31,583 bases of DNA from Armatimonadota bacterium (GTDB lineage: Bacteria > Sysuimicrobiota > Sysuimicrobiia > Sysuimicrobiales > Humicultoraceae), in contig JBBIJB010000019.1 of the NCBI GenBank assembly GCA_037446215.1, positions 1 to 31,583 on the forward strand, in the 5' to 3' direction. Position numbers and translations under genes: made by a program. Below are positions 1 to 11,707 of this stretch, one piece after another. The number at the start of each line of letters is the position of its first letter. Position 1 is the first letter of the stretch. Below the pieces are notes generated by a model, which had not been told where the DNA came from, made no database searches, and worked only from the letters and a program-made list of their open reading frames with translations.

Positions 1-1294
1 GCACGTCGCGCCTGACCACCGAGCCCGCCCCGGTCACCGCGTCGCTTCCCACGCGCACGGGCGCTATGAGCATCGTGTCGCTGCCTATGAATGCGCGGTC
101 CTCTATCACGGTGTGGTGCTTGGCCCGACCGTCGAAGTTGCAGGTGACGGTGCCGGCGCCGATGTTGACCCTCTCCCCGACGGTGGCGTCCCCCAGGTAG
201 GAGACGTGATGGACCTTCGTGCGGTCGCCCACGGTGACGTTCTTCATCTCGGCGAAGTTGCCCACCTCCACGAACCTGCCGAGACGCACGCCGGGCCTCA
301 GGTGGCTGTAGGGGCCGATGCGGCTGTCGTCGCCGACGGTGCTGGAGGTCACCGTCGAGGCGACGATCGTGACGCGATCGCCTATCTCGGCGTCGACGAG
401 GCGGGCCGAGGGGCCGATCGTGCAGCCCTCGCCTATCGAGGTGTCGCCCTCCAGGATCGTGCCGGGGTGGAGCGTGGTGTCCGGGCCTACCCTTACGCCC
501 GCGTGTACGTACGTCGCGCCGGGATCGACGATCGTCACGCCGGCCTCCATCAGGGCGTCCAGCAGGCGCGCCCTCACGGCGGCCTCCGCGCGCGCCAGCT
601 CACCGCGGCTGTTGATGCCGGTCGTCTCCTGGCTCGACGCCGCCACGACGGCGGCCACTGTGTGGCCGGCGCCCAGCAGCACTCCGATTGCGTCGGTCAG
701 GTAGTACTCGCCCTGGGCATTGCCGGGCTGGATCGCTGCCACGGCCTCTCGCAGGGCGCCGCACTCGATCGCGTACATCCCCGCGTTGACCTCCCTGACC
801 TCGCGCTCCTCGGGCGTCGCGTCCGGCTCCTCGACTATGCGGCTGACGTTGCCGCGTGCGTCCCGCAGCACCCGCCCGTAGCCGGCGGGGTCGTCGCGGA
901 GGTCGGTGAGGATCGTGGCCGCCGCGCCCTGCGCCCGGTGGTGGGCCACGAGCGTTTCAACGGTCGCCGGCCGCAGGAGAGGGACGTCTCCGTAGACTAT
1001 CAGGACAGTGCCGGCGTAGCCCTCGAGGAGGGGAAGCGCCTGGGCCACCGCGTGTCCGGTACCGAGCTGCTCCTCCTGGACGGCATACCTCACGCCCTCG
1101 CCCAGCGTCGCGCGCACACGGTCGGCGCCGTGCCCGACCACGATCACGGGCGACGCCATGCCCACTGCCGAGAGGGTCTCCAGCACGTAGGAGATGATTG
1201 GCCTTCCGCAGATCGGGTGAAGCACCTTGGGAAGGGCAGAGACCATCCGCTTGCCCTTGCCCGCGGCCAGGACGACCGCCTCGATCTCTCTCAT
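1..1294 (-). CDS. glmU: Bifunctional UDP-N-acetylglucosamine pyrophosphorylase/glucosamine-1-phosphate N-acetyltransferase; 3' end runs off the window
   Basis: Absent from the ORF track (no stop in window). Manual translation from ATG 1294 gives MREIEAVVLAAGKGKRMVSALPKVLHPICGRP; the distal part has hexapeptide repeats and VNIGAGTVTCNFDG. AGGAG RBS upstream. Confidence 0.96.
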   Translation of the reverse strand, partial: MREIEAVVLAAGKGKRMVSALPKVLHPICGRPIISYVLETLSAVGMASPVIVVGHGADRVRATLGEGVRYAVQEEQLGTGHAVAQALPLLEGYAGTVLIVYGDVPLLRPATVETLVAHHRAQGAAATILTDLRDDPAGYGRVLRDARGNVSRIVEEPDATPEEREVREVNAGMYAIECGALREAVAAIQPGNAQGEYYLTDAIGVLLGAGHTVAAVVAASSQETTGINSRGELARAEAAVRARLLDALMEAGVTIVDPGATYVHAGVRVGPDTTLHPGTILEGDTSIGEGCTIGPSARLVDAEIGDRVTIVASTVTSSTVGDDSRIGPYSHLRPGVRLGRFVEVGNFAEMKNVTVGDRTKVHHVSYLGDATVGERVNIGAGTVTCNFDGRAKHHTVIEDRAFIGSDTMLIAPVRVGSDAVTGAGSVVRRDV

Positions 1295-1332
1295 CCCTGC
1301 TGCTCCTGTGAAGACGCGTACTTCCTCATGGA

Positions 1333-1357
1333 GTTCTGTCGCGGCGCAGGTATTCCT
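1333..1357 (-). promoter_or_regulatory. Putative AGGA-N17-GAAC (Bacillus sigma-H-like) promoter upstream of glmU
   Basis: Minus strand GAAGGAATACCTGCGCCGCGACAGAAC; the same motif recurs at five other upstream regions. Confidence 0.45.
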
Positions 1358-1385
1358 TCGGGACGATCTGGCCGATGAGGTGCGC

Positions 1386-1459
1386 TGGCTGGGGGGCCAG
1401 GATTCGAACCTGGACTAGGGGATCCAAAGTCCCCCGGCCTACCATTAGCCGACCCCCCA
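1386..1459 (-). tRNA. tRNA-Gln(UUG)
   Basis: TGGGGGGTCGGCTAATGGTAGGCCGGGGGACTTTGGATCCCCTAGTCCAGGTTCGAATCCTGGCCCCCCAGCCA forms a cloverleaf with anticodon TTG, T-loop GTTCGAATC, encoded CCA and a U1-A72 pair. Confidence 0.97.
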
Positions 1460-1495
1460 GAGGCCTCCCCGAAGATTATCCCACCCGGCCGGCGC

Positions 1496-1876
1496 CTAGG
1501 CCAGGGCTATCAGATCTATCTCCACCAGCACGTCGCGAGGGAGCCGGGCGGCCTGCACCGTGGTGCGCGCCGGCGGAAGCTCGCGGAAATAGCCGGCGTA
1601 CACCTCGTTCATCGCTCCGAAGTCGTTCATGTCCTTCAGGAAGACCGTCGCCTTGACGACCCTGTCCATTGAGGAGCCCGCGGCGTCCAGGACCGCGGCC
1701 AGATTCTGCAGCACCCGGTGGGTCTGTGTCTTGATGTCTGTGCCGTGAACCTGCCCGGTGTCGGGATCCAGCGGCGTCTGACCGGAGAGGAAGAGCAACC
1801 CGCCGGCACGGATCGCGTGTGAGTACGGGCCGATGGGCAAGGGCGCGCCTTCGCTACGAACCACCTCTTTGGACAT
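1496..1876 (-). CDS. ridA: RidA/YjgF reactive enamine/imine deaminase
   Basis: Motifs [35 protein letters not shown] (catalytic Arg) and [17 protein letters not shown]. Confidence 0.95.
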
Positions 1877-1918
1877 CTCTACCTCCTGCTTGCGGGGATT
1901 GCCGGCCGTGGCGCCGCG

Positions 1919-2158
1919 TCACTGCTGCGGCTTGTCCAGCAGGCGCATCAGAGCGGTTCGGAGCTCCGTCGGCGCCCGCTCGCCCAGGCACTTCTGACGG
2001 AGCACCTCCCGCAGCCTGCGCTCGAAGCCCGCATGGTCGCGGCAGTCGAGGCAGTGCTCGATGTGCTCCTCGAGCTCGCCGGCCGCCGCCTCGTCGACCT
2101 CGCCGTCGAGGTAGCTCCACAGTTGCTCCAAGACCTTGTCACAGTCTATGTGGCTCAT
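1919..2158 (-). CDS. Zinc-binding anti-sigma factor (RsrA/RshA-like, zf-HC2)
   Basis: N-terminal Cys, YLDGE, HxxxCxxC (HIEHCLDC) and C-terminal C...AP.LR; coupled to the sigma gene by a TGATG overlap. Confidence 0.9.
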   Translation of the reverse strand: MSHIDCDKVLEQLWSYLDGEVDEAAAGELEEHIEHCLDCRDHAGFERRLREVLRQKCLGERAPTELRTALMRLLDKPQQ

Positions 2159-2802
2159 CAGGTTCTCGGCTGTGCGGACGGTCGTTCCCCGTCCGTGTAG
2201 CCCGCCCTCCTGGCATAATCCCAGAGTAGCCGCTGAAGATGGCGACGCCCCCGGTAGAGGCGCGACATCACCGTGCCGATAGGGATGTCCAAGATCTCCG
2301 CGATCTCCTTGTAGGAGAACTCCTCGAGGTCGGCCAGGATGACCGCGGCCCGAAACGGCTCGGGCACTTGCTCCAGCGCTGTCTTCACGTCCGCGTCCAT
2401 GATCTGGGAGAGCAATATCTCCTCAGGATCCCCCTGGCGCCTGTAGTCGTCGCTCTCGCGGACCTTGGCGTAGAGGTAGAACTCGCCGACGTCATCGTCC
2501 TCCACCGTCTCCGGCTCCCGCTTCGAGCGGCGGTAGGTATCTATGTACGCGTTCATGAGGATCCTGTACAGCCAGGCGCGCGCGTTCGTCCCATCCTGGA
2601 AGGTGTGGAACGACCGCCAAGCCCTCATGAACGCCTCCTGGACCAGATCCTCGGCCGAGGTACGGTTGCGCGTGAGCCGCAGCGCCGCACCGTACATGCG
2701 GTCGATGTGCTCTGTGACGAGGGCCTCGAACCGCTCGCGGTCCTCCCCGGTTGCTGCGACTTGTGGATGCTCACGGCTCAAGACCGCACCGCCTGCCCGC
2801 AT
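2158..2802 (-). CDS. ECF RNA polymerase sigma factor, SigR/SigH-like
   Basis: AEDLVQEAF, FQDGTNARAWLYRILMN and FSYKEIAEILDIPIGTVMSRLYRGR; adjacent ZAS anti-sigma gene. Confidence 0.93.
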   Translation of the reverse strand: MRAGGAVLSREHPQVAATGEDRERFEALVTEHIDRMYGAALRLTRNRTSAEDLVQEAFMRAWRSFHTFQDGTNARAWLYRILMNAYIDTYRRSKREPETVEDDDVGEFYLYAKVRESDDYRRQGDPEEILLSQIMDADVKTALEQVPEPFRAAVILADLEEFSYKEIAEILDIPIGTVMSRLYRGRRHLQRLLWDYARRAGYTDGERPSAQPRT

Positions 2803-2811
2803 GTCCAGTAC

Positions 2812-2837
2812 AACCGCGCGGCTGCCCTAGACATTCC
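2812..2837 (-). promoter_or_regulatory. SigR/SigH-type autoregulatory promoter GGAAT-N18-GTT
   Basis: Minus strand GGAAT-GTCTAGGGCAGCCGCGCG-GTT, ending 9 nt before the sigma ATG at 2802. Confidence 0.8.
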
Positions 2838-3309
2838 GGATTCGCCGCCGATCTCCCTTTCGGGTCCGGGCCTTCGCCCGGGCGGAGGAGTCGGCGGCCT
2901 GCTCGGTGCCGGCCCCGAGATCCGCCAGGGTCAGCATGTCCAGGGCGCCCCTTGCCGCCGCCTCTATCGCCCTCCAGACAGGGCGAACCCCGCACTCCGA
3001 AGCGTAGTCGCACTGGGGGGCCTCTCCTCCCGCGCACCACCAGGGCGCTATCCCCCCCTCCAGGGCCTCGAACGCCTCCCGCAGGGTTATCTCGGCCGGG
3101 GGCCGGGCCAGGGCGTGACCGCCCGAGGGCCCACGCTTGCTGATCACTATGCCGGCCCGGCGCAACACTGCCAGGAGGCGCTTGAGGTAGGGCTCGGGAA
3201 TCCCCTGCCGATCCGCGATCCCGCCGCTGTGCGCCATCCCTCTCCCGTGCCTTGCGGCGAGATCAAGCAGCGCGCGGAAACCGTACTCGGCGCGGGATGA
3301 TACCTTCAT
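2827..3309 (-). CDS. Rrf2-family transcriptional regulator with three Cys (probable Fe-S cluster)
   Basis: True start is MKVSSRAEYG (ATG 3309, ATGA overlap with the upstream gene). Motifs SKRGPSGGHALARPPAEITL and C-x7-C-x5-C. Confidence 0.92.
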   Translation of the reverse strand: MKVSSRAEYGFRALLDLAARHGRGMAHSGGIADRQGIPEPYLKRLLAVLRRAGIVISKRGPSGGHALARPPAEITLREAFEALEGGIAPWWCAGGEAPQCDYASECGVRPVWRAIEAAARGALDMLTLADLGAGTEQAADSSARAKARTRKGDRRRIRNV

Positions 3310-3716
3310 CGAGTGATGAGCTCCTCCTCGCGAATCGCGCCGTCCCGGATCCAGAAGGCCCGGACCACGGCGTCCTCGGCGGCGCCGGAGCCGGGCAGCG
3401 AGACGATGACGTGCACCGCGTCCGGGTAGTACGCCTGCTCGACATCCCTGCGCGAGGGATAGGCCTGCGACCGCGTATGGGAGTGGAAGATGGCCAGCAT
3501 CTCCCACCCCAGTGCCGCGATACCGTTGAATATGCGAAGTTGGTCCTCCGGATCGAGCAGGAACGTGTAGGGCGAGGGCTCGGCGTTGGCGCCGCGAAAC
3601 AGCCCTTCGACGCGCCCCTCCCTACCCGCCAGAATGCCGCAGCACTCGTTGGGGAAGGCGTCGTGGGCGAGCTCGACCATTAGGGAGCGCAGACCTGTCG
3701 AGAGAACAAGGGCCAC
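3306..3716 (-). CDS. M67/JAMM (Mov34/MPN+) metallopeptidase, Mec/CysO-cysteine peptidase-like
   Basis: PNECCGILAG and the JAMM motif FHSHTRSQAYPSRRD; length and motifs match the Mec-like subfamily. Confidence 0.9.
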   Translation of the reverse strand: MALVLSTGLRSLMVELAHDAFPNECCGILAGREGRVEGLFRGANAEPSPYTFLLDPEDQLRIFNGIAALGWEMLAIFHSHTRSQAYPSRRDVEQAYYPDAVHVIVSLPGSGAAEDAVVRAFWIRDGAIREEELITR

Positions 3717-3723
3717 ATGCGCA

Positions 3724-3729
3724 ATTATA
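3724..3729 (-). promoter_or_regulatory. -10 element TATAAT 7 nt before the GTG start; probable leaderless transcript
   Basis: Minus strand GTG-TATAAT-TGCGCAT-GTG; no SD sequence. Confidence 0.6.
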
Positions 3730-3775
3730 CACGACCGTGCCTCGGGCCCGTCCGGGGCGCCCGGTGTGCCCTCGC

Positions 3776-4624
3776 CTACTCGTCGTAGAGGACAGTGGCC
3801 TCCGGGTACCGGCGCACCCGGTTGTCACGCAGCCGGGCGCGAACCAGCTCGTCCAGCCTGGCCTGCTTGGCCTCCTGGGACTCCGTCGAGCGCAGGACGG
3901 CCAGGTCTATGTTGACGCGCAGGGCCCGCTGGGGAATCAGGTGGCGGCTGATCCCTGTCGGCAGCTTCAAGGGCAACAGGGACGCCGCCCGGATGTCGTT
4001 CTTGGTGAACTCAGGGAAGCGCACAACAGCCGCGGCCCGCTCGTAGGCGGCCAGGAGCGGCGCGAGGTCGCCGGGCGGAACCCGGTAGATGGCGGTCCGG
4101 CCTCTGTACGCGGCGACGACTCGCACCACCGCCTCGATCTTCTCCGCCAGGCCGCCGGGCGAGGCGATGCCGAGCGCGCCCTCGGCCGTCACCAGGCCGC
4201 AGGCCGTCTCGCCCGAGGCTAGGCCCTCGTCCAGCGCCTCTTCGGAGAGGGGTGTCCAGGGGAGATCGCCGTGGCTCGTGAGCAGCAGCTTGAGGCCGTC
4301 TTCGAGCAGCAGATGCGCCCATACGTCGAGCCTCAGGGCGGGATCGTCGTAGTCTACGACCTGCGCGAGCTGGTGGGGAGCTCCCGAGAGGCCGAGGGCT
4401 GTCACCCTATTGGCTCCGTCGAGCACCACGTGGTTGAGCGAGTCCACGGGCGCGACGATCGGCGGGTTGCGCAGGATCCCGTCGGCCCTCATCGACTGGG
4501 CGAGCCGCCCCGTGCGGACGGGGTCGCACTCCTCATGAAGCAGCAGTGAGGAGGTCGGCACTATCCGCAGGTCTGGAAGCTTGAGATCGGAAGAGCCTGC
4601 TGATGCCTCGGTCAATTCCATCAC
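3776..4624 (-). CDS. ParB/Srx-fold protein, SbnI/SerK-like putative free L-serine kinase
   Basis: N-domain LLLHEECDPVR...LRNPPIV...VLDGANR. C-terminal LPTGISRHLIPQRALRVNIDLAVL...VRRYPEATVLYDE resembles the SbnI C-terminus as I recall it. No HTH. Start overlaps the lipB stop. Confidence 0.7.
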   Translation of the reverse strand: MMELTEASAGSSDLKLPDLRIVPTSSLLLHEECDPVRTGRLAQSMRADGILRNPPIVAPVDSLNHVVLDGANRVTALGLSGAPHQLAQVVDYDDPALRLDVWAHLLLEDGLKLLLTSHGDLPWTPLSEEALDEGLASGETACGLVTAEGALGIASPGGLAEKIEAVVRVVAAYRGRTAIYRVPPGDLAPLLAAYERAAAVVRFPEFTKNDIRAASLLPLKLPTGISRHLIPQRALRVNIDLAVLRSTESQEAKQARLDELVRARLRDNRVRRYPEATVLYDE

Positions 4625-5370
4625 CTCGTGCCCGCGGGCTCCCCGTCGGAGCCGCGCAGGAGTGCCTCCACCCGCTCCAGGGAGACTCGCTCCATCTCGA
4701 CTCGGAAGAGGCGGCCGAACTGCTTCGGGTACTCCACCCTCACAGGCCGCATCTCCACCCGTCTGCCAAGCACCTCGGACATCGATGTGACGGGGCGCCC
4801 GAGCCCGCAGGGGTCTATGAGGGAGAAGCCGCTGGTGTCAGGATGCACGTTGAGCGCGAAGCCGTGCATCGTGACCTTCCGCTTTATCGCCACCCCCACA
4901 GCGCAGATCTTCGCCCCGTCCACCCAGACTCCCGGGTAGCCCTTGGCGCGCGTGCCCCGGATCCCGAAGACCAGGAGGGTGCGGATTACCGACTCCTCCA
5001 GGGCGTGCATGTATGCCGCCACGTCTTCCCTAAGCGGCGCGAGGCCGACGACCGGGTAGCCGACCAGTTGGCCCGGAGCGTGGTAGGTGGCGCTCCCGCC
5101 CCGCTCGACCTCGAACACCTCCACCCCAAGCGAGGCCAGCTTCTGCTGGGTCGCGATCACGTGCAGCGGGCTGCCGCTGCGCCCGATCGTGATCACCGGG
5201 GGGTGCTCAAGCAGCATCAGCAGATCGGGCACACTACCCTCCTGCCGGGCCCGGAGGAGCTCTCGCTGAAACGCCCAGGCGCGCGCGTAGGGAACCGGCG
5301 CCTCGTCGAGGTCCAGCAGCCAGCCCTTTGAAGCCGTCCCCTTCCGGCCCTCCGGGCCAAACGGTTCCAT
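4621..5370 (-). CDS. lipB: Lipoyl(octanoyl) transferase
   Basis: LLEHPPVITIG, ERGGSATYHAPGQLVGYP, GAKICAVG, HGFALNV and IDPCG. Start taken at ATG 5370. Confidence 0.95.
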   Translation of the reverse strand: MEPFGPEGRKGTASKGWLLDLDEAPVPYARAWAFQRELLRARQEGSVPDLLMLLEHPPVITIGRSGSPLHVIATQQKLASLGVEVFEVERGGSATYHAPGQLVGYPVVGLAPLREDVAAYMHALEESVIRTLLVFGIRGTRAKGYPGVWVDGAKICAVGVAIKRKVTMHGFALNVHPDTSGFSLIDPCGLGRPVTSMSEVLGRRVEMRPVRVEYPKQFGRLFRVEMERVSLERVEALLRGSDGEPAGTR

Positions 5371-5376
5371 ACGGGC

Positions 5377-5385
5377 AGAGTACCA
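5377..5385 (-). promoter_or_regulatory. Extended -10 (TGG-TACTCT) 6 nt before the lipB ATG; probable leaderless transcript
   Basis: Minus strand TGGTACTCT-GCCCGT-ATG; no SD sequence. Confidence 0.55.
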
Positions 5386-5496
5386 AAGCGCGCCCGGCCC
5401 AACAACCCGCGGGGGCAGAGGGCTTTGGGAGGGGCACGGTCGAACTCTACAGGCGGCGGCAGGTACAATCGACGGCATCTGTCCGGAGCCGGCACG

Positions 5497-6168
5497 ATGA
5501 GCATCCACGACATCTACAGGGCCGAGCGCACCGAGATGTACCTGAAGGCGGTGTACACGATAGCCCTCACCGACCCCCCTGTGACGAACGCCAAGGTCGC
5601 GGAGTACATGTGCGTCGCCGCCCCCTCGTCTCACGAGAAGTTGAGGAGGCTCGAGGCGCAGGGGCTGCTGGCCTCCGGCGCGACCGACGGCTACCGGCTG
5701 ACGCCGGAGGGCCTCGCGACCGCGGTGAAGGTCGTCCGCCGCCTGCGCCTCGCCGAGCGGCTGCTCACCGACATACTGCGGATGGAGATCGCGCACGCGC
5801 ACAGCGAGGCGTGCAAGCTGGAGCACGTGATCAGCCGGGAGGTCGAGTCACGGCTGTGGGAGGTACTGGGGCACCCAGCCACCTGCCCGCACGGCCTGCC
5901 GATACCCGGGGACAGGCCGATCTCGGTGGAGCTCCTGCCCACGCTGGACCAGATCGGCGTGGGCGCGCGGGCCGAGGTCGCCAGCATTCCCGAGCGGGAT
6001 GAGGAGGTCGTAGCCCTGCTGGCGGGGATCGGTCTCCTTCCCGGCACATCCGTCTCTGTCAGGGAGGTCGCTCCGCTTGGCGGACCGATAACGGTCCGAA
6101 CGGGCGGCCAGGGCAGGGCGCTCAGCCGCGAGGTCGCCCGGCGCCTCAGGGTCAGACCCCGCGGCTAG
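5497..6168 (+). CDS. DtxR/IdeR/MntR-family metal-dependent repressor with C-terminal FeoA domain
   Basis: TEMYLKAVY, RLAERLL, AHSEACKLEH, PATCPHGLPIPG and a FeoA-like tail. GGAG RBS and TACAAT at 5464-5469. Confidence 0.92.
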   Translation: MSIHDIYRAERTEMYLKAVYTIALTDPPVTNAKVAEYMCVAAPSSHEKLRRLEAQGLLASGATDGYRLTPEGLATAVKVVRRLRLAERLLTDILRMEIAHAHSEACKLEHVISREVESRLWEVLGHPATCPHGLPIPGDRPISVELLPTLDQIGVGARAEVASIPERDEEVVALLAGIGLLPGTSVSVREVAPLGGPITVRTGGQGRALSREVARRLRVRPRG

Positions 6169-6357
6169 CCCTTTGTGAGAGCGGGGAGAGAGCGGCCTGC
6201 CAGAGTGGCCGGGCGGTCCGGGAGGGGGAACGGCGGGGCGTTGCCGCGGCGCCTGCTGTCCGCCGCTCCCTCGGGGAATCGAGGAAGCCGCGTCACCTCA
6301 TCTCTTGACCGGAGGCAGCCCCGTGCAGCAGAGTGGTGGGGTCTGGCAGAGGGGAGT

Positions 6358-10280: not shown

Positions 10281-11645
10281 CTAGCCCCTGGGCTGGAAGG
10301 CGGCCAGCCGCTCCATGGAGCGCTCGACCTCCTCCTGCGGATAGGCGAAGTCCTGCAGCCTGCCCGTGAGGTAGGCGTCGTACGCGGAGAGATCGAAGTG
10401 ACCGTGGCCGGAGAGCCCGAAGAGGATCGTGCGCGGCTTCCCCTCGGCCTTGGCCTCCAGCGCCTCGTCCACGGCCTTGCGTATCGCATGCGCGGCCTCG
10501 GGCGCGGGGATTATCCCCTCGGTGCGCGCGAACTGCATGGCGGCCTCGAAGACCGCGCGCTGGCCGTAGGCCGCGGCATCTATGTAGCCGTGGTGGGCGA
10601 GCAGGCACACGAGCGGCGCGCCGCCGTGGTAGCGAAGCCCGCCCGCGTGTATCCCCGGCGGCACGAAGTCGTGCCCCAGCGTGTGCATCTTGATCAGCGG
10701 AGTGGTCGCGGCCGTGTCGCCGAAGTCGTAGAGGTACTGGCCGCGGGTGAGCGTCGGGCAGGCCTCTGGCTCGACTGCGGCGAACCGAACCTGCTTCCCG
10801 CCGAACTTGTCGGGCATGAACGGAAACGCGAGCCCGGCGAAGTTGCTGCCGCCGCCGACGCACCCTATGACGACGTCGGGGTAGTCACCCGAGAGCTCCA
10901 TCTGCTTGTGTGCCTCGAGACCGATCACGGTCTGATGCAGCAGGACGTGGTTCAGGACGCTGCCGAGCGAGTACTTGGTCTCGCCGCTCCCCGCGGCGTC
11001 CTCCACCGCTTCGCTGATGGCTATCCCGAGGCTGCCCGGCGACTCGGGCGATGCTTCGAGGATCGCCTTGCCCGCTCTTGTGCGGTCGGTCGGGCTCGGG
11101 AGGACGTCGGCGCCCCAGGTCTGCATCATCAGCTTGCGATAGGGCTTCTGATCGTAGGAGACCCGGACCATGTACACCGTGCACTCCAGGCCGAACAACC
11201 TGCAGGCGAATGAGAGCGCGCTGCCCCACTGGCCGGCGCCCGTTTCCGTGGATAGCCGACGAACGCCCTCCTGCTTGTTGTAGAAGGCCTGCGCCACTGC
11301 GGTGTTCGGCTTGTGGCTGCCGGCAGGGCTCGTCCCCTCGTACTTATAGTAGATGCGCGCCGGCGTATCCAGGGCCGCCTCCAGCCTCCTGGCGCGGTAG
11401 AGCGGGGTAGGCCTCCACAGCCGGTAGACGTCGCGGACGGGCGCGGGAATCTCGACCTCGCGCTCGGCGCTCACCTCCTGGGCGATGAGCTCCGCCGGGA
11501 AGAGGGGCTCCAGGTCGGCAGGGCCTATCGGCTGCCCTGTACCGGGATGGATCACCGGCGCGGGCGGAACCGGAAGGTCCGCCGCTATGTTGTACCAGGC
11601 CTTCGGGAGATCGCTTTCGCCCAACACTATCTTGGTAGAGTCCAC
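10281..11645 (-). CDS. trpB2: Tryptophan synthase beta chain, TrpB2 type (stand-alone)
   Basis: [35 protein letters not shown] (PLP Lys), [24 protein letters not shown] and LSGHGHFD. Start chosen at GTG 11645 from GGAGG spacing. Confidence 0.95.
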
Positions 11646-11707
11646 TGCCAGCACCTCCCCTGATCTGGGGGCATGCGCGCGGGTGGTGCGCCCCGCGCTC
11701 CCCGGAT

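Follow-up and report, generated by a model that had tools for sequence, protein, structure and literature searches.

The window analysed here, the whole stretch of 31,583 bases, is part of a metagenome-assembled genome with 2.16 Mb in 149 contigs and a completeness of 91.3 % (G000; the numbers of other genomes likewise carry a G, those of loci an L and those of contigs a C). Its relatives are named Candidatus Sysuimicrobiota, formerly CSP1-3, and are often filed under Armatimonadota. Positions 1496-5370 hold seven genes on the minus strand, for LipB, a ParB-fold protein, a JAMM metallopeptidase, an Rrf2 regulator, an extracytoplasmic function (ECF) sigma factor, a zinc-associated anti-sigma (ZAS) factor and RidA (Table 1). 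The ParB-fold protein is predicted to be a free L-serine kinase forming O-phospho-L-serine (OPS), and the module is a reduced remnant without the sulfur carrier and the CysM on which the proposed route to cysteine depends. The argument draws on homology, fold, catalytic residues, neighbourhoods, fusions, phyletic patterns and promoter motifs, from which all enzymatic activities and substrates are predicted. Domain and start-site analysis confirmed the seven co-directional genes and three start/stop overlaps of a preliminary description of the locus: lipB and the ParB-fold gene share 4621-4624 (GTGA), the JAMM and Rrf2 genes 3306-3309 (ATGA), and sigma and anti-sigma genes position 2158. Its statement that cysM, cysO and moeZ are absent from the window was equally correct, the sole other PALP gene there being TrpB2. 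Among public sequence runs, the stretch was listed for four, all of DNA and from a single study that may include the source of the window, and for none of RNA. In the four, three or more had contigs bridging both the lipB|kinase and the kinase|JAMM junction without joints or indels, thus the compact arrangement is not a mis-assembly.

Table 1. Features of the predicted serine kinase locus and the TrpB2 gene of the same window
Feature	Position	Strand	Remarks
lipB (octanoyl/lipoyl transferase)	4621-5370	-	PF21948 159 bits; TIGR00214 146.2 (cut-off 83.55); start MEPFG at 5370; first of the run
ParB/Srx-fold protein, predicted free L-serine kinase (SbnI/SerK family), 282 aa	3776-4624	-	
TATAAT, likely -10 element of a leaderless JAMM-Rrf2 transcript	3724-3729	-	
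JAMM/MPN+ metallopeptidase (Mec/QbsD-like), 136 aa	3306-3716	-	PF14464 72 bits
Rrf2-family regulator, 160 aa	2827-3309	-	PF02082 118 bits; true start MKVSS at 3309
GGAAT-N18-GTT, SigR/SigH-type autoregulatory promoter	2812-2837	-	10 nt before sigma start
ECF sigma factor, SigR/SigH-like	2158-2802	-	Sigma70_r2 and r4_2; TIGR02947
ZAS anti-sigma factor, RsrA-like	1919-2158	-	zf-HC2; TIGR03988; HIEHCLDC
RidA (enamine/imine deaminase)	1496-1876	-	PF01042 147.8 bits; TIGR00004 164.1 (cut-off 106.25)
TrpB2 (TrpB-like PLP enzyme)	10281-11654	-	5.7 kb from the kinase gene, other operon

A Pfam scan of the ParB-fold protein gave no match, and members of its family are currently annotated as 'hypothetical' or 'ParB N-terminal domain-containing'. 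A profile built from 16 homologues and searched against the PDB retrieved the solved SbnI structures with E values from 6e-26 to 4e-21, among them 5uje (E 6.3e-26, profile 18-254 on chain 9-231) and 6nr6 (E 1.3e-21, 17-275 on 6-246), and SerK 5x0b at E 8.7e-9 in a near full-length alignment. The AlphaFold model reached a pLDDT of 90.3. Its nine top fold matches in the PDB were SbnI and SerK (235-259 aligned columns, TMq 0.59-0.75, TMt 0.67-0.82); other ParB, Noc and sulfiredoxin (Srx) structures covered just the N-domain of about 80 residues. Residue E31 and the motif D69-G-A-N-R are invariant across the 16 sequences and align with the LHE and (I/L)DG motifs of SbnI, whose Glu and Asp are 38 residues apart. 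We take these to be Glu20 and Asp58, the residues required for SbnI activity. In SerK, E30 is the counterpart of the catalytic Glu, and E30 mutants are named in PDB titles. In 79 homologues, 34 columns show a conservation of at least 95 %, and the window protein retains them all. The NCBIfam equivalog cut-offs were missed (SbnI NF033589, 56.1 against 350; SerK NF053625, 22.2 against 380). By sequence and modelled fold, the protein truly belongs to the SbnI/SerK superfamily, where it is placed in a subfamily of its own and is no orthologue of SbnI or SerK. The SbnI-like character claimed in the preliminary description was thus borne out as homology, and the formation of OPS from free serine is the best-supported prediction of its activity.

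Gene neighbourhoods of the kinase homologues connect the family with sulfur metabolism. A scan of one genome per prokaryotic species gave 391 related loci, besides more than 1,000 homologous proteins in a protein search, and the neighbourhoods of the best 80 of the 391 loci were counted by tblastn with the window proteins and a few others. A gene of the CysK/CysM/CBS type was near the kinase in 58 of these 80 loci, a JAMM gene in 49, a ThiS-like (CysO-like) carrier in 46, Rrf2 in 45 and the sigma factor in 42; LipB was upstream of the kinase in 35, and in 24 a RidA gene followed downstream. Carrier, PALP or JAMM, singly or together, occurred in 66 loci. The conservation of the kinase-JAMM-rrf2 neighbourhood, for which the preliminary description had proposed a check, was therewith found: the clusters recur in relatives. 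The fullest cluster annotated, L037, has co-directional, mostly overlapping genes in the order lipB, cystathionine gamma-synthase/lyase, ThiS/SAMP-like carrier, CBS, kinase, CysM, JAMM, Rrf2, sigma, anti-sigma, RidA. Its gamma-synthase/lyase scored 567 bits against a cut-off of 513, its CBS 543 against 510 and its CysM 352, just under 394. In the Chloroflexota, L069 and L083 present the order SufS-NifU-Rieske-kinase ... ThiS-MoeZ(rhodanese+ThiF)-PALP, and L077 the order JAMM-CBS-kinase-ThiS ... rhodanese-MoeZ. The same players occur in two phyla in shuffled order, which speaks for a link in function and less for mere inheritance of synteny. In three further Chloroflexota loci (L073, L088 and L089), forming one well-supported clade in a quick tree, a TrpB2 with 63-65 % identity to that of the window is encoded directly upstream of the kinase on the same strand. 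When the CysM proteins of the relatives were compared with solved chains, generic cysteine synthases and CysM of E. coli were the best matches and CysM of M. tuberculosis was found at about the 19th place (202 against 233 bits), thus likeness to solved structures was uninformative for the substrate. A different setting was observed in L063:6924-7673 (Ardenticatenaceae, Chloroflexota metagenome-assembled genome) and L071:8905-11072 (Latescibacterota), where the kinase homologues adjoin isochorismatase-family (nicotinamidase-like) genes, in L071 together with a phosphoribosyltransferase gene; this resembles a context of NAD salvage, without sulfur genes.

Gene fusions extend these associations. 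Among the 120 best homologues, eight have 370-376 residues and join the kinase, through a linker, to a ThiS domain at the N-terminus that ends in AMAGG. The loci gave 47 ThiS matches, and wherever these had AMAGG, the Gly-Gly was not directly followed by a stop codon: the tails comprised 1-25 residues, or 458-497 residues continuing in frame into a CBS-like gene in nine loci (L029, L031, L034, L039, L047, L049, L053, L058 and L066). For the 'CBS' fused to it, the carrier may be the working partner in place of homocysteine. As the carrier is always made tailed or fused, it needs trimming to expose the Gly-Gly, and this would provide a first job for the adjacent JAMM peptidase, besides a cysteine release of the Mec type. 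QbsD and QbsE are a precedent for the trimming of a carrier by a JAMM protein. A search among longer proteins revealed a further fusion, P0121 with 618 residues, in which the kinase part (33 % identity over 99 % of the query) stands in place of the usual regulatory domains of a SerA-like protein (TIGR01327, 402 bits; next family 247). It is a single protein, present on two contigs, and provides only a hint of function. Two unrelated OPS-capable classes of beta-replacement enzymes and a SerA fusion accompany the kinase, which argues for OPS as its product. The fusions with ThiS could also be read as a sign that the ParB-fold protein acts on the carrier itself, by binding, phosphorylating or activating ThiS, or that it is a DNA-binding regulator like SbnI in its second function. 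NCBIfam names SbnI a bifunctional transcriptional regulator/OPS synthase, and the ParB fold is versatile (PMC12704722). However, the carrier is fused to CBS in nine loci as well, so that the fusions look like tolerated read-through into the next gene; MoeZ co-occurs with the kinase in the Chloroflexota clusters, hence no E1 is being replaced; and the kinase persists in the window's genus without the carrier. The whole two-domain SbnI/SerK fold with the catalytic Glu and Asp is kept, and TrpB2 and SerA as partners point to OPS chemistry. We consider an action on the carrier or on DNA the least likely of the explanations weighed here. For the family as a whole, the route from the predicted kinase through OPS to carrier-bound sulfur is well supported by the clusters of CysO-like carrier, CysM, CBS and JAMM, partly with MoeZ, and by the fusions.

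The regulatory genes resemble known redox regulators. The anti-sigma factor passed the RsrA model TIGR03988 (74.5 against 62.5), with HIEHCLDC as its HxxxCxxC motif, and the best model of the sigma factor was TIGR02947 (SigH_actino) with 205.7 bits, below the cut-off of 251.55. The sequence GGAAT-N18-GTT is the consensus of SigR/SigH promoters. Its match upstream of the sigma gene is the single one in the window (0.82 expected anywhere), and such a match was located at most 150 nt upstream of the sigma gene in 34 of the 42 sigma-bearing loci. A SigR-type promoter was also present before the carrier gene in four loci and before lipB in two. The assignment to a SigR/RsrA-type system holds therefore as a likeness. 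The Rrf2 protein scored 112 against 73.3 with the rrf2_super model and 70.8 against 195 with CymR; the equivalog cut-offs of CymR and IscR were missed. Three clustered cysteines, C92-x7-C100-x5-C106 in the window protein, are present in 43 of 43 relatives, thus the regulator is of the Fe-S type and not CymR-like. The hexamer TATAAT occurs once in the window (0.49 expected), 7 nt before the GTG start codon of the JAMM gene. TATAAT or TATACT was found 7-8 nt before the JAMM gene in L014, L015, L022, L024 and L025, all from other genera, even where CysM precedes JAMM; it was absent in L016-L019 and L037. A scan of positions 1200-6200 yielded neither sigma-70 promoters nor intrinsic terminators (0 and 0), and the lone TATAAT has no matching -35 element there. 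Owing to the recurrence in five relatives, a separate, leaderless JAMM-Rrf2 transcript is probable, as the preliminary description had suggested from the TATAAT motif. Divergent from lipB lies the gene (5497-6168, plus strand) of a metal-dependent repressor of the DtxR/MntR family that has a FeoA domain, a neighbour that recurs in several relatives.

The distribution of the partner genes was studied in 31 genomes of the order, G000 and 30 others, of which eight belong to the window's genus and 23 do not. CysE was not found in any of the 31 genomes at E 1e-10; a positive control detected it in 12 of 14 known genomes. The kinase was present in 30 of the 31 genomes, JAMM in all (8/8 in the genus) and MoeZ in 29. 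In G029 (89 % complete), the exception for the kinase, a CysM orthologue is missing as well; a ThiS-like carrier, a divergent JAMM, TrpB2 and TrpB are retained. A CysM orthologue of at least 63 % identity occurred in 22 of the 23 genomes outside the genus and in none of the eight inside, where a 108-residue piece lies at a contig edge of G004. The carrier was present in 23 of 23 genomes outside; inside the genus, just two broken pieces were found, both in G004. Searches of G000 by tblastn with carrier, CysM and CBS of L037 gave no orthologue, the best match of CysM being a Fn1055-like enzyme with 37-39 % identity. This enzyme of the CysK family is itself confined to the genus: with at least 70 % identity (70-74 % to the G000 copy on C51) it was found in seven of its eight genomes and in none of the 23 others, where the best match had 44 %. 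Since G001, G002, G003 and G006 of the genus are 95-97 % complete, the loss of CysO and CysM is real and no gap of G000. In a quick IQ-TREE phylogeny, whose branch details are provisional and from which L033 was left out (match below 230 residues), the window kinase is placed inside a clade of 21 rows (SH-aLRT 99) whose other members mostly have carrier and CysM; four other reduced loci form a clade of their own (99). This nesting among carrier- and CysM-bearing loci indicates that the reduced cluster is the derived form. As read from the assembled genomes, the cluster of the window's genus has lost carrier, CBS, gamma-lyase and CysM and has kept kinase and JAMM intact, and orthologue searches did not find the lost genes elsewhere in the genome.

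The preliminary description had located the missing partners of its OPS route outside the window. The search of the genome yielded moeZ, a MoeZ-type E1 at C24:7149-8222 (ThiF 250 bits, Rhodanese 65 bits), and no cysM, cysO or cysE. Orthologues of the cluster's carrier and CysM were not found in G000 or, apart from broken pieces in G004, in the seven other genomes of the genus. The preliminary description had named such a lack as refuting evidence, and the kinase-to-carrier route, though well supported for the family, is not supported for this genome. Next to the MoeZ gene, lipoyl synthase LipA is encoded (G000 C24:7149-9284, L103), and the kinase cluster begins with lipB; the idea that lipoate and the carrier system are linked in general was rejected, as LipA-MoeZ pairs were present in just 10 of 30 MoeZ loci, mostly of the window's genus. 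An intact CysO/CysM/Mec route with cysO, cysM and moeZ elsewhere or in the unassembled part of the genome would agree with the MoeZ on C24, with the intact JAMM and with a completeness of only 91 %. In two genomes of the genus, CBS and a further kinase copy are even present at a second locus. These kinase copies are broken, however, interrupted by one TAG in G004 and fragmented in G005, and the other ThiS-fold proteins of G000 are encoded with AOR, MoeA and MoaE. With no carrier, CysM or CBS orthologue in G000, no CysM in eight of eight genomes and no intact carrier in the genus, four genomes being 95-97 % complete, we regard an intact route as very unlikely.

The loss of the partners, the broken second copies in G004 and G005, three substitutions unique to the window JAMM and a long end branch of the window kinase (0.46 against a median of 0.17 in the quick tree) would also suit the view that the deleted cluster has left kinase and JAMM behind without function, kept only by synteny and decaying. 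In contrast, the cluster kinase is an open frame in all eight genomes of the genus (in G007 cut by a contig end) and the JAMM gene is present in all eight; none of the 34 conserved columns is changed in the window kinase, and the JAMM protein has all its metal ligands; the 4-nt overlaps of lipB with the kinase gene and of JAMM with Rrf2 are kept. We give the leftover explanation a very slim chance, about as small as that of an intact route. The JAMM protein has the motifs E-x-CCG and HSHx7Sx2D, retains 21 of 24 conserved columns and has 2kks and JAMM1 as its closest solved relatives. It is the only true JAB-family gene of G000. In this genome, MoaD/ThiS domains are fused in frame to MoeA at C11:40127-41662 (L003:1462-2997) and to MoaE on C49 (L001:1501-2160), each fusion with an internal Gly-Gly that would require exposure by proteolysis. 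Processing of the MoaD-MoeA and MoaD-MoaE fusions is a plausible remaining task of the JAMM peptidase.

A predicted kinase kept without carrier and CysM raises the question of its remaining OPS users. SepRS/SepCysS was rejected as consumer, as SepRS was not found in G000 (best score 36.9 bits, cut-off 380.65). Two candidates were obtained. The TrpB2 of the window scored 737.3 against 366 with PRK12391, 648.9 against 518.85 with TIGR01415 and 137 against 392 with TIGR00263. It is the only TrpB-type enzyme of G000; canonical TrpB, TrpA and indole-3-glycerol phosphate synthase were not found in this genome, and four other genomes of the genus are also without TrpB. TrpB2 enzymes are said to be OPS-dependent. 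The kinase may thus supply OPS to TrpB2, which would make tryptophan from indole and OPS. The second candidate is the genus-specific Fn1055-like enzyme, which may receive OPS from the kinase and act as an OPS (or serine) sulfhydrylase. Its closest solved relative is 5B53, Fn1055 of Fusobacterium, with 392 bits. The gene (G000 C51:13864-14973; L101:5864-6973, minus strand) encodes a cysteine-rich C-terminal tail of about 50 residues and lies downstream of the genes for a 4Fe-4S dicluster domain protein and a zinc-ribbon protein. The two proposals do not exclude each other; both may hold, and as the OPS user of G000 we rate them about equally. Unrelated to the kinase, G000 C17:295-6888 (L104) codes for a carbamoyltransferase, a ThrC-like PALP enzyme with an N-terminal cysteine-rich stretch, a 501-residue distant cysteine-synthase-like protein and an SsnA-like aminohydrolase.

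The kinase could also act in the opposite direction of metabolism, in serine assimilation or catabolism from serine through OPS and 3-phosphohydroxypyruvate to 3-phosphoglycerate, as proposed for SerK of Thermococcus, with serine provided by the reductive glycine pathway. This pathway has been reported for the phylum (PMC11604079), in a paper whose main text contains neither 'cysteine' nor 'serine', and it would yield serine without passing through OPS. GapMind 2026 recounts the Thermococcus route and proposes the same for DUF1015 proteins of Bacteroides. One kinase homologue is fused to a SerA-like domain, and G000 has two AGT/PhnW-like aminotransferases and four 2-hydroxyacid dehydrogenases with scores like those of phosphoglycerate dehydrogenase. 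Beside these enzymes, the bypass of SerA/SerC proposed in the preliminary description is no more than a possibility. Yet the dominant context of the family is cysteine synthesis and not serA/serC, a canonical SerC was not found in G000, and the SerA fusion is one protein on two contigs. A catabolic role is therefore unlikely, though it deserves more weight than the other alternatives to OPS supply for biosynthesis.

Our preferred explanation joins a family of serine kinases to an ancestral carrier route and a reduced remnant in the window's genus. The ancestral cluster of the phylum would have comprised lipB, a gamma-lyase/synthase, a CysO-like ThiS carrier, CBS, kinase, CysM, JAMM, Rrf2, a SigR-like sigma factor, an RsrA-like anti-sigma factor and RidA. 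OPS from the kinase would be the activated serine for a beta-replacement of the CysM type, and the sulfur would come from the thiocarboxylated carrier, to be charged by a MoeZ whose gene is nearby or elsewhere. The JAMM peptidase would first trim the tailed or fused carrier to its Gly-Gly and later free the cysteine. The three-Cys Rrf2 protein and the sigma/anti-sigma pair, presumably sensing thiol oxidation, would regulate the cluster. In the window's genus, only lipB, kinase, JAMM, Rrf2, sigma, anti-sigma and RidA would be left, and OPS would pass to other users. Taken as a whole, we hold this explanation to be probable, with considerable room for doubt.

Several findings weigh against it. 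The kinase has about 20 % identity to SbnI and SerK and stays far below their equivalog cut-offs, so that it may act on another substrate or with another phosphate donor. Among the relatives, CysM shows no particular closeness to the M. tuberculosis enzyme that is specific for OPS; the use of OPS by the relatives' CysM is accordingly deduced from context only. Fourteen of the 80 loci have no sulfur context. The OPS dependence of TrpB2 is taken from the title of Busch et al. (2014), the TrpB2 gene of the window is 5.7 kb away from the kinase gene, across divergent genes, and the co-occurrence of both is not strict: TrpB2 occurs without the kinase in G029, and in G003, G015, G018, G020 and G021 there is a kinase but no TrpB2 match. 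Fn1055 itself has been described as a cysteine-degrading enzyme (Cys + H2O -> Ser + H2S; PMC9865163). The window JAMM carries Y52F, Y77F and T90R at otherwise conserved columns, substitutions common to no relative. Single absences in G000 alone are weak at a completeness of 91 %, and the loss of CysO and CysM together with the gain of the Fn1055-like enzyme counts as one co-inherited event, not as independent replicates.

A wider proposal goes beyond this evidence and is put forward with clear reservation, as a possibility rather doubtful than probable. OPS from the kinase family may be a general currency of activated serine in Sysuimicrobiota and a part of the Chloroflexota, in lineages without CysE and with serine from the reductive glycine pathway reported for Sysuimicrobiota, feeding CysM, whose partner would be a CysO-like carrier, as well as TrpB2 and CBS-like enzymes fused to ThiS. 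JAMM would then be a general protease exposing the Gly-Gly of ThiS-CBS, ThiS-kinase, MoaD-MoaE and MoaD-MoeA proteins. In the window's genus, a Fn1055-like OPS sulfhydrylase would have replaced the carrier route, and kinase and JAMM would have been kept for TrpB2 and the maturation of molybdopterin synthase.

If the preferred explanation is true, the kinase family represents a third and much wider setting of free serine kinases, besides the characterised archaeal SerK and the staphylococcal SbnI of siderophore synthesis. It would name the source of OPS for carrier-dependent CysM and for TrpB2, whose supply is unexplained in such bacteria; the physiological role of TrpB2 has long been unclear. 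It would also offer a testable pathway of cysteine synthesis in an uncultured phylum in which no CysE was found, and an example of natural pathway turnover: the carrier half is lost, an unrelated enzyme of the CysK type appears and the kinase stays. The preliminary description knew of no report on this arrangement, and the freely accessible papers and abstracts consulted contained none either, nor a free serine kinase tied to a carrier route of cysteine synthesis; the tie of the kinase family to carrier-type cysteine genes looks undescribed. Likewise, no paper of the freely accessible literature searched named TrpB2 together with a serine kinase.

Among the characterised proteins, SbnI of Staphylococcus aureus and S. 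pseudintermedius, acting in staphyloferrin B synthesis, is the best match in sequence and fold, over both domains and the full length and with Glu and Asp kept 38 residues apart. SbnI supplies OPS to SbnA, a PLP enzyme of the CysK family. The window protein differs by an identity of about 20 % and a score of 56 bits against 350, there are no siderophore genes nearby, and the partners in the family are CysM, CBS, CysO and JAMM or TrpB2. SerK of Thermococcus kodakarensis, an ADP-dependent kinase of cysteine synthesis and serine catabolism, shares the fold (TMt 0.76-0.77) and the catalytic Glu, but it is archaeal and the window protein reaches 22 bits against a cut-off of 380. We know of no sulfur carrier protein involved in Thermococcus. 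The role of SerK in cysteine synthesis through OPS is given in a title and in passages of GapMind 2026 and a 2025 survey of the ParB-CTPase fold (PMC12704722), which in its passages on SerK and SbnI cites both only as ATP-binding enzymes. The DUF1015 protein 'SerBK' (GapMind 2026), with a fold remotely like that of SbnI, has also been proposed as a free serine kinase of bacteria. It belongs to a different family, is encoded with serA/serC and, in the section describing it, is proposed as a replacement of SerB and unlinked to CysM or CysO. With the stand-alone TrpB2 enzymes, the window gene agrees by passing both NCBIfam models of TrpB2. The clusters of the relatives share carrier, CysM, JAMM and sometimes MoeZ with the Mec-CysO-CysM system (Rv1334-1336) and MoeZ of Mycobacterium tuberculosis. 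Mycobacterial OPS comes from the SerA/SerC pathway. In contrast, the clusters of the relatives have a dedicated kinase, CBS, a gamma-lyase, a tailed or fused carrier and a three-Cys Rrf2 regulator, and the window has neither carrier nor CysM. The control of mec-cysO-cysM by SigH, as described for M. tuberculosis, is paralleled by the SigR/SigH-type sigma factor, the RsrA-like anti-sigma factor and the SigR-type promoter before the carrier gene in four loci. The same core set was described by Iyer, Burroughs and Aravind (2006) in operons of ThiS/MoaD, E1-rhodanese, JAB and cysteine synthase genes, including an example from Chloroflexus; to this set, in a main text that mentions neither ParB nor a serine kinase, the predicted kinase is the element added here.

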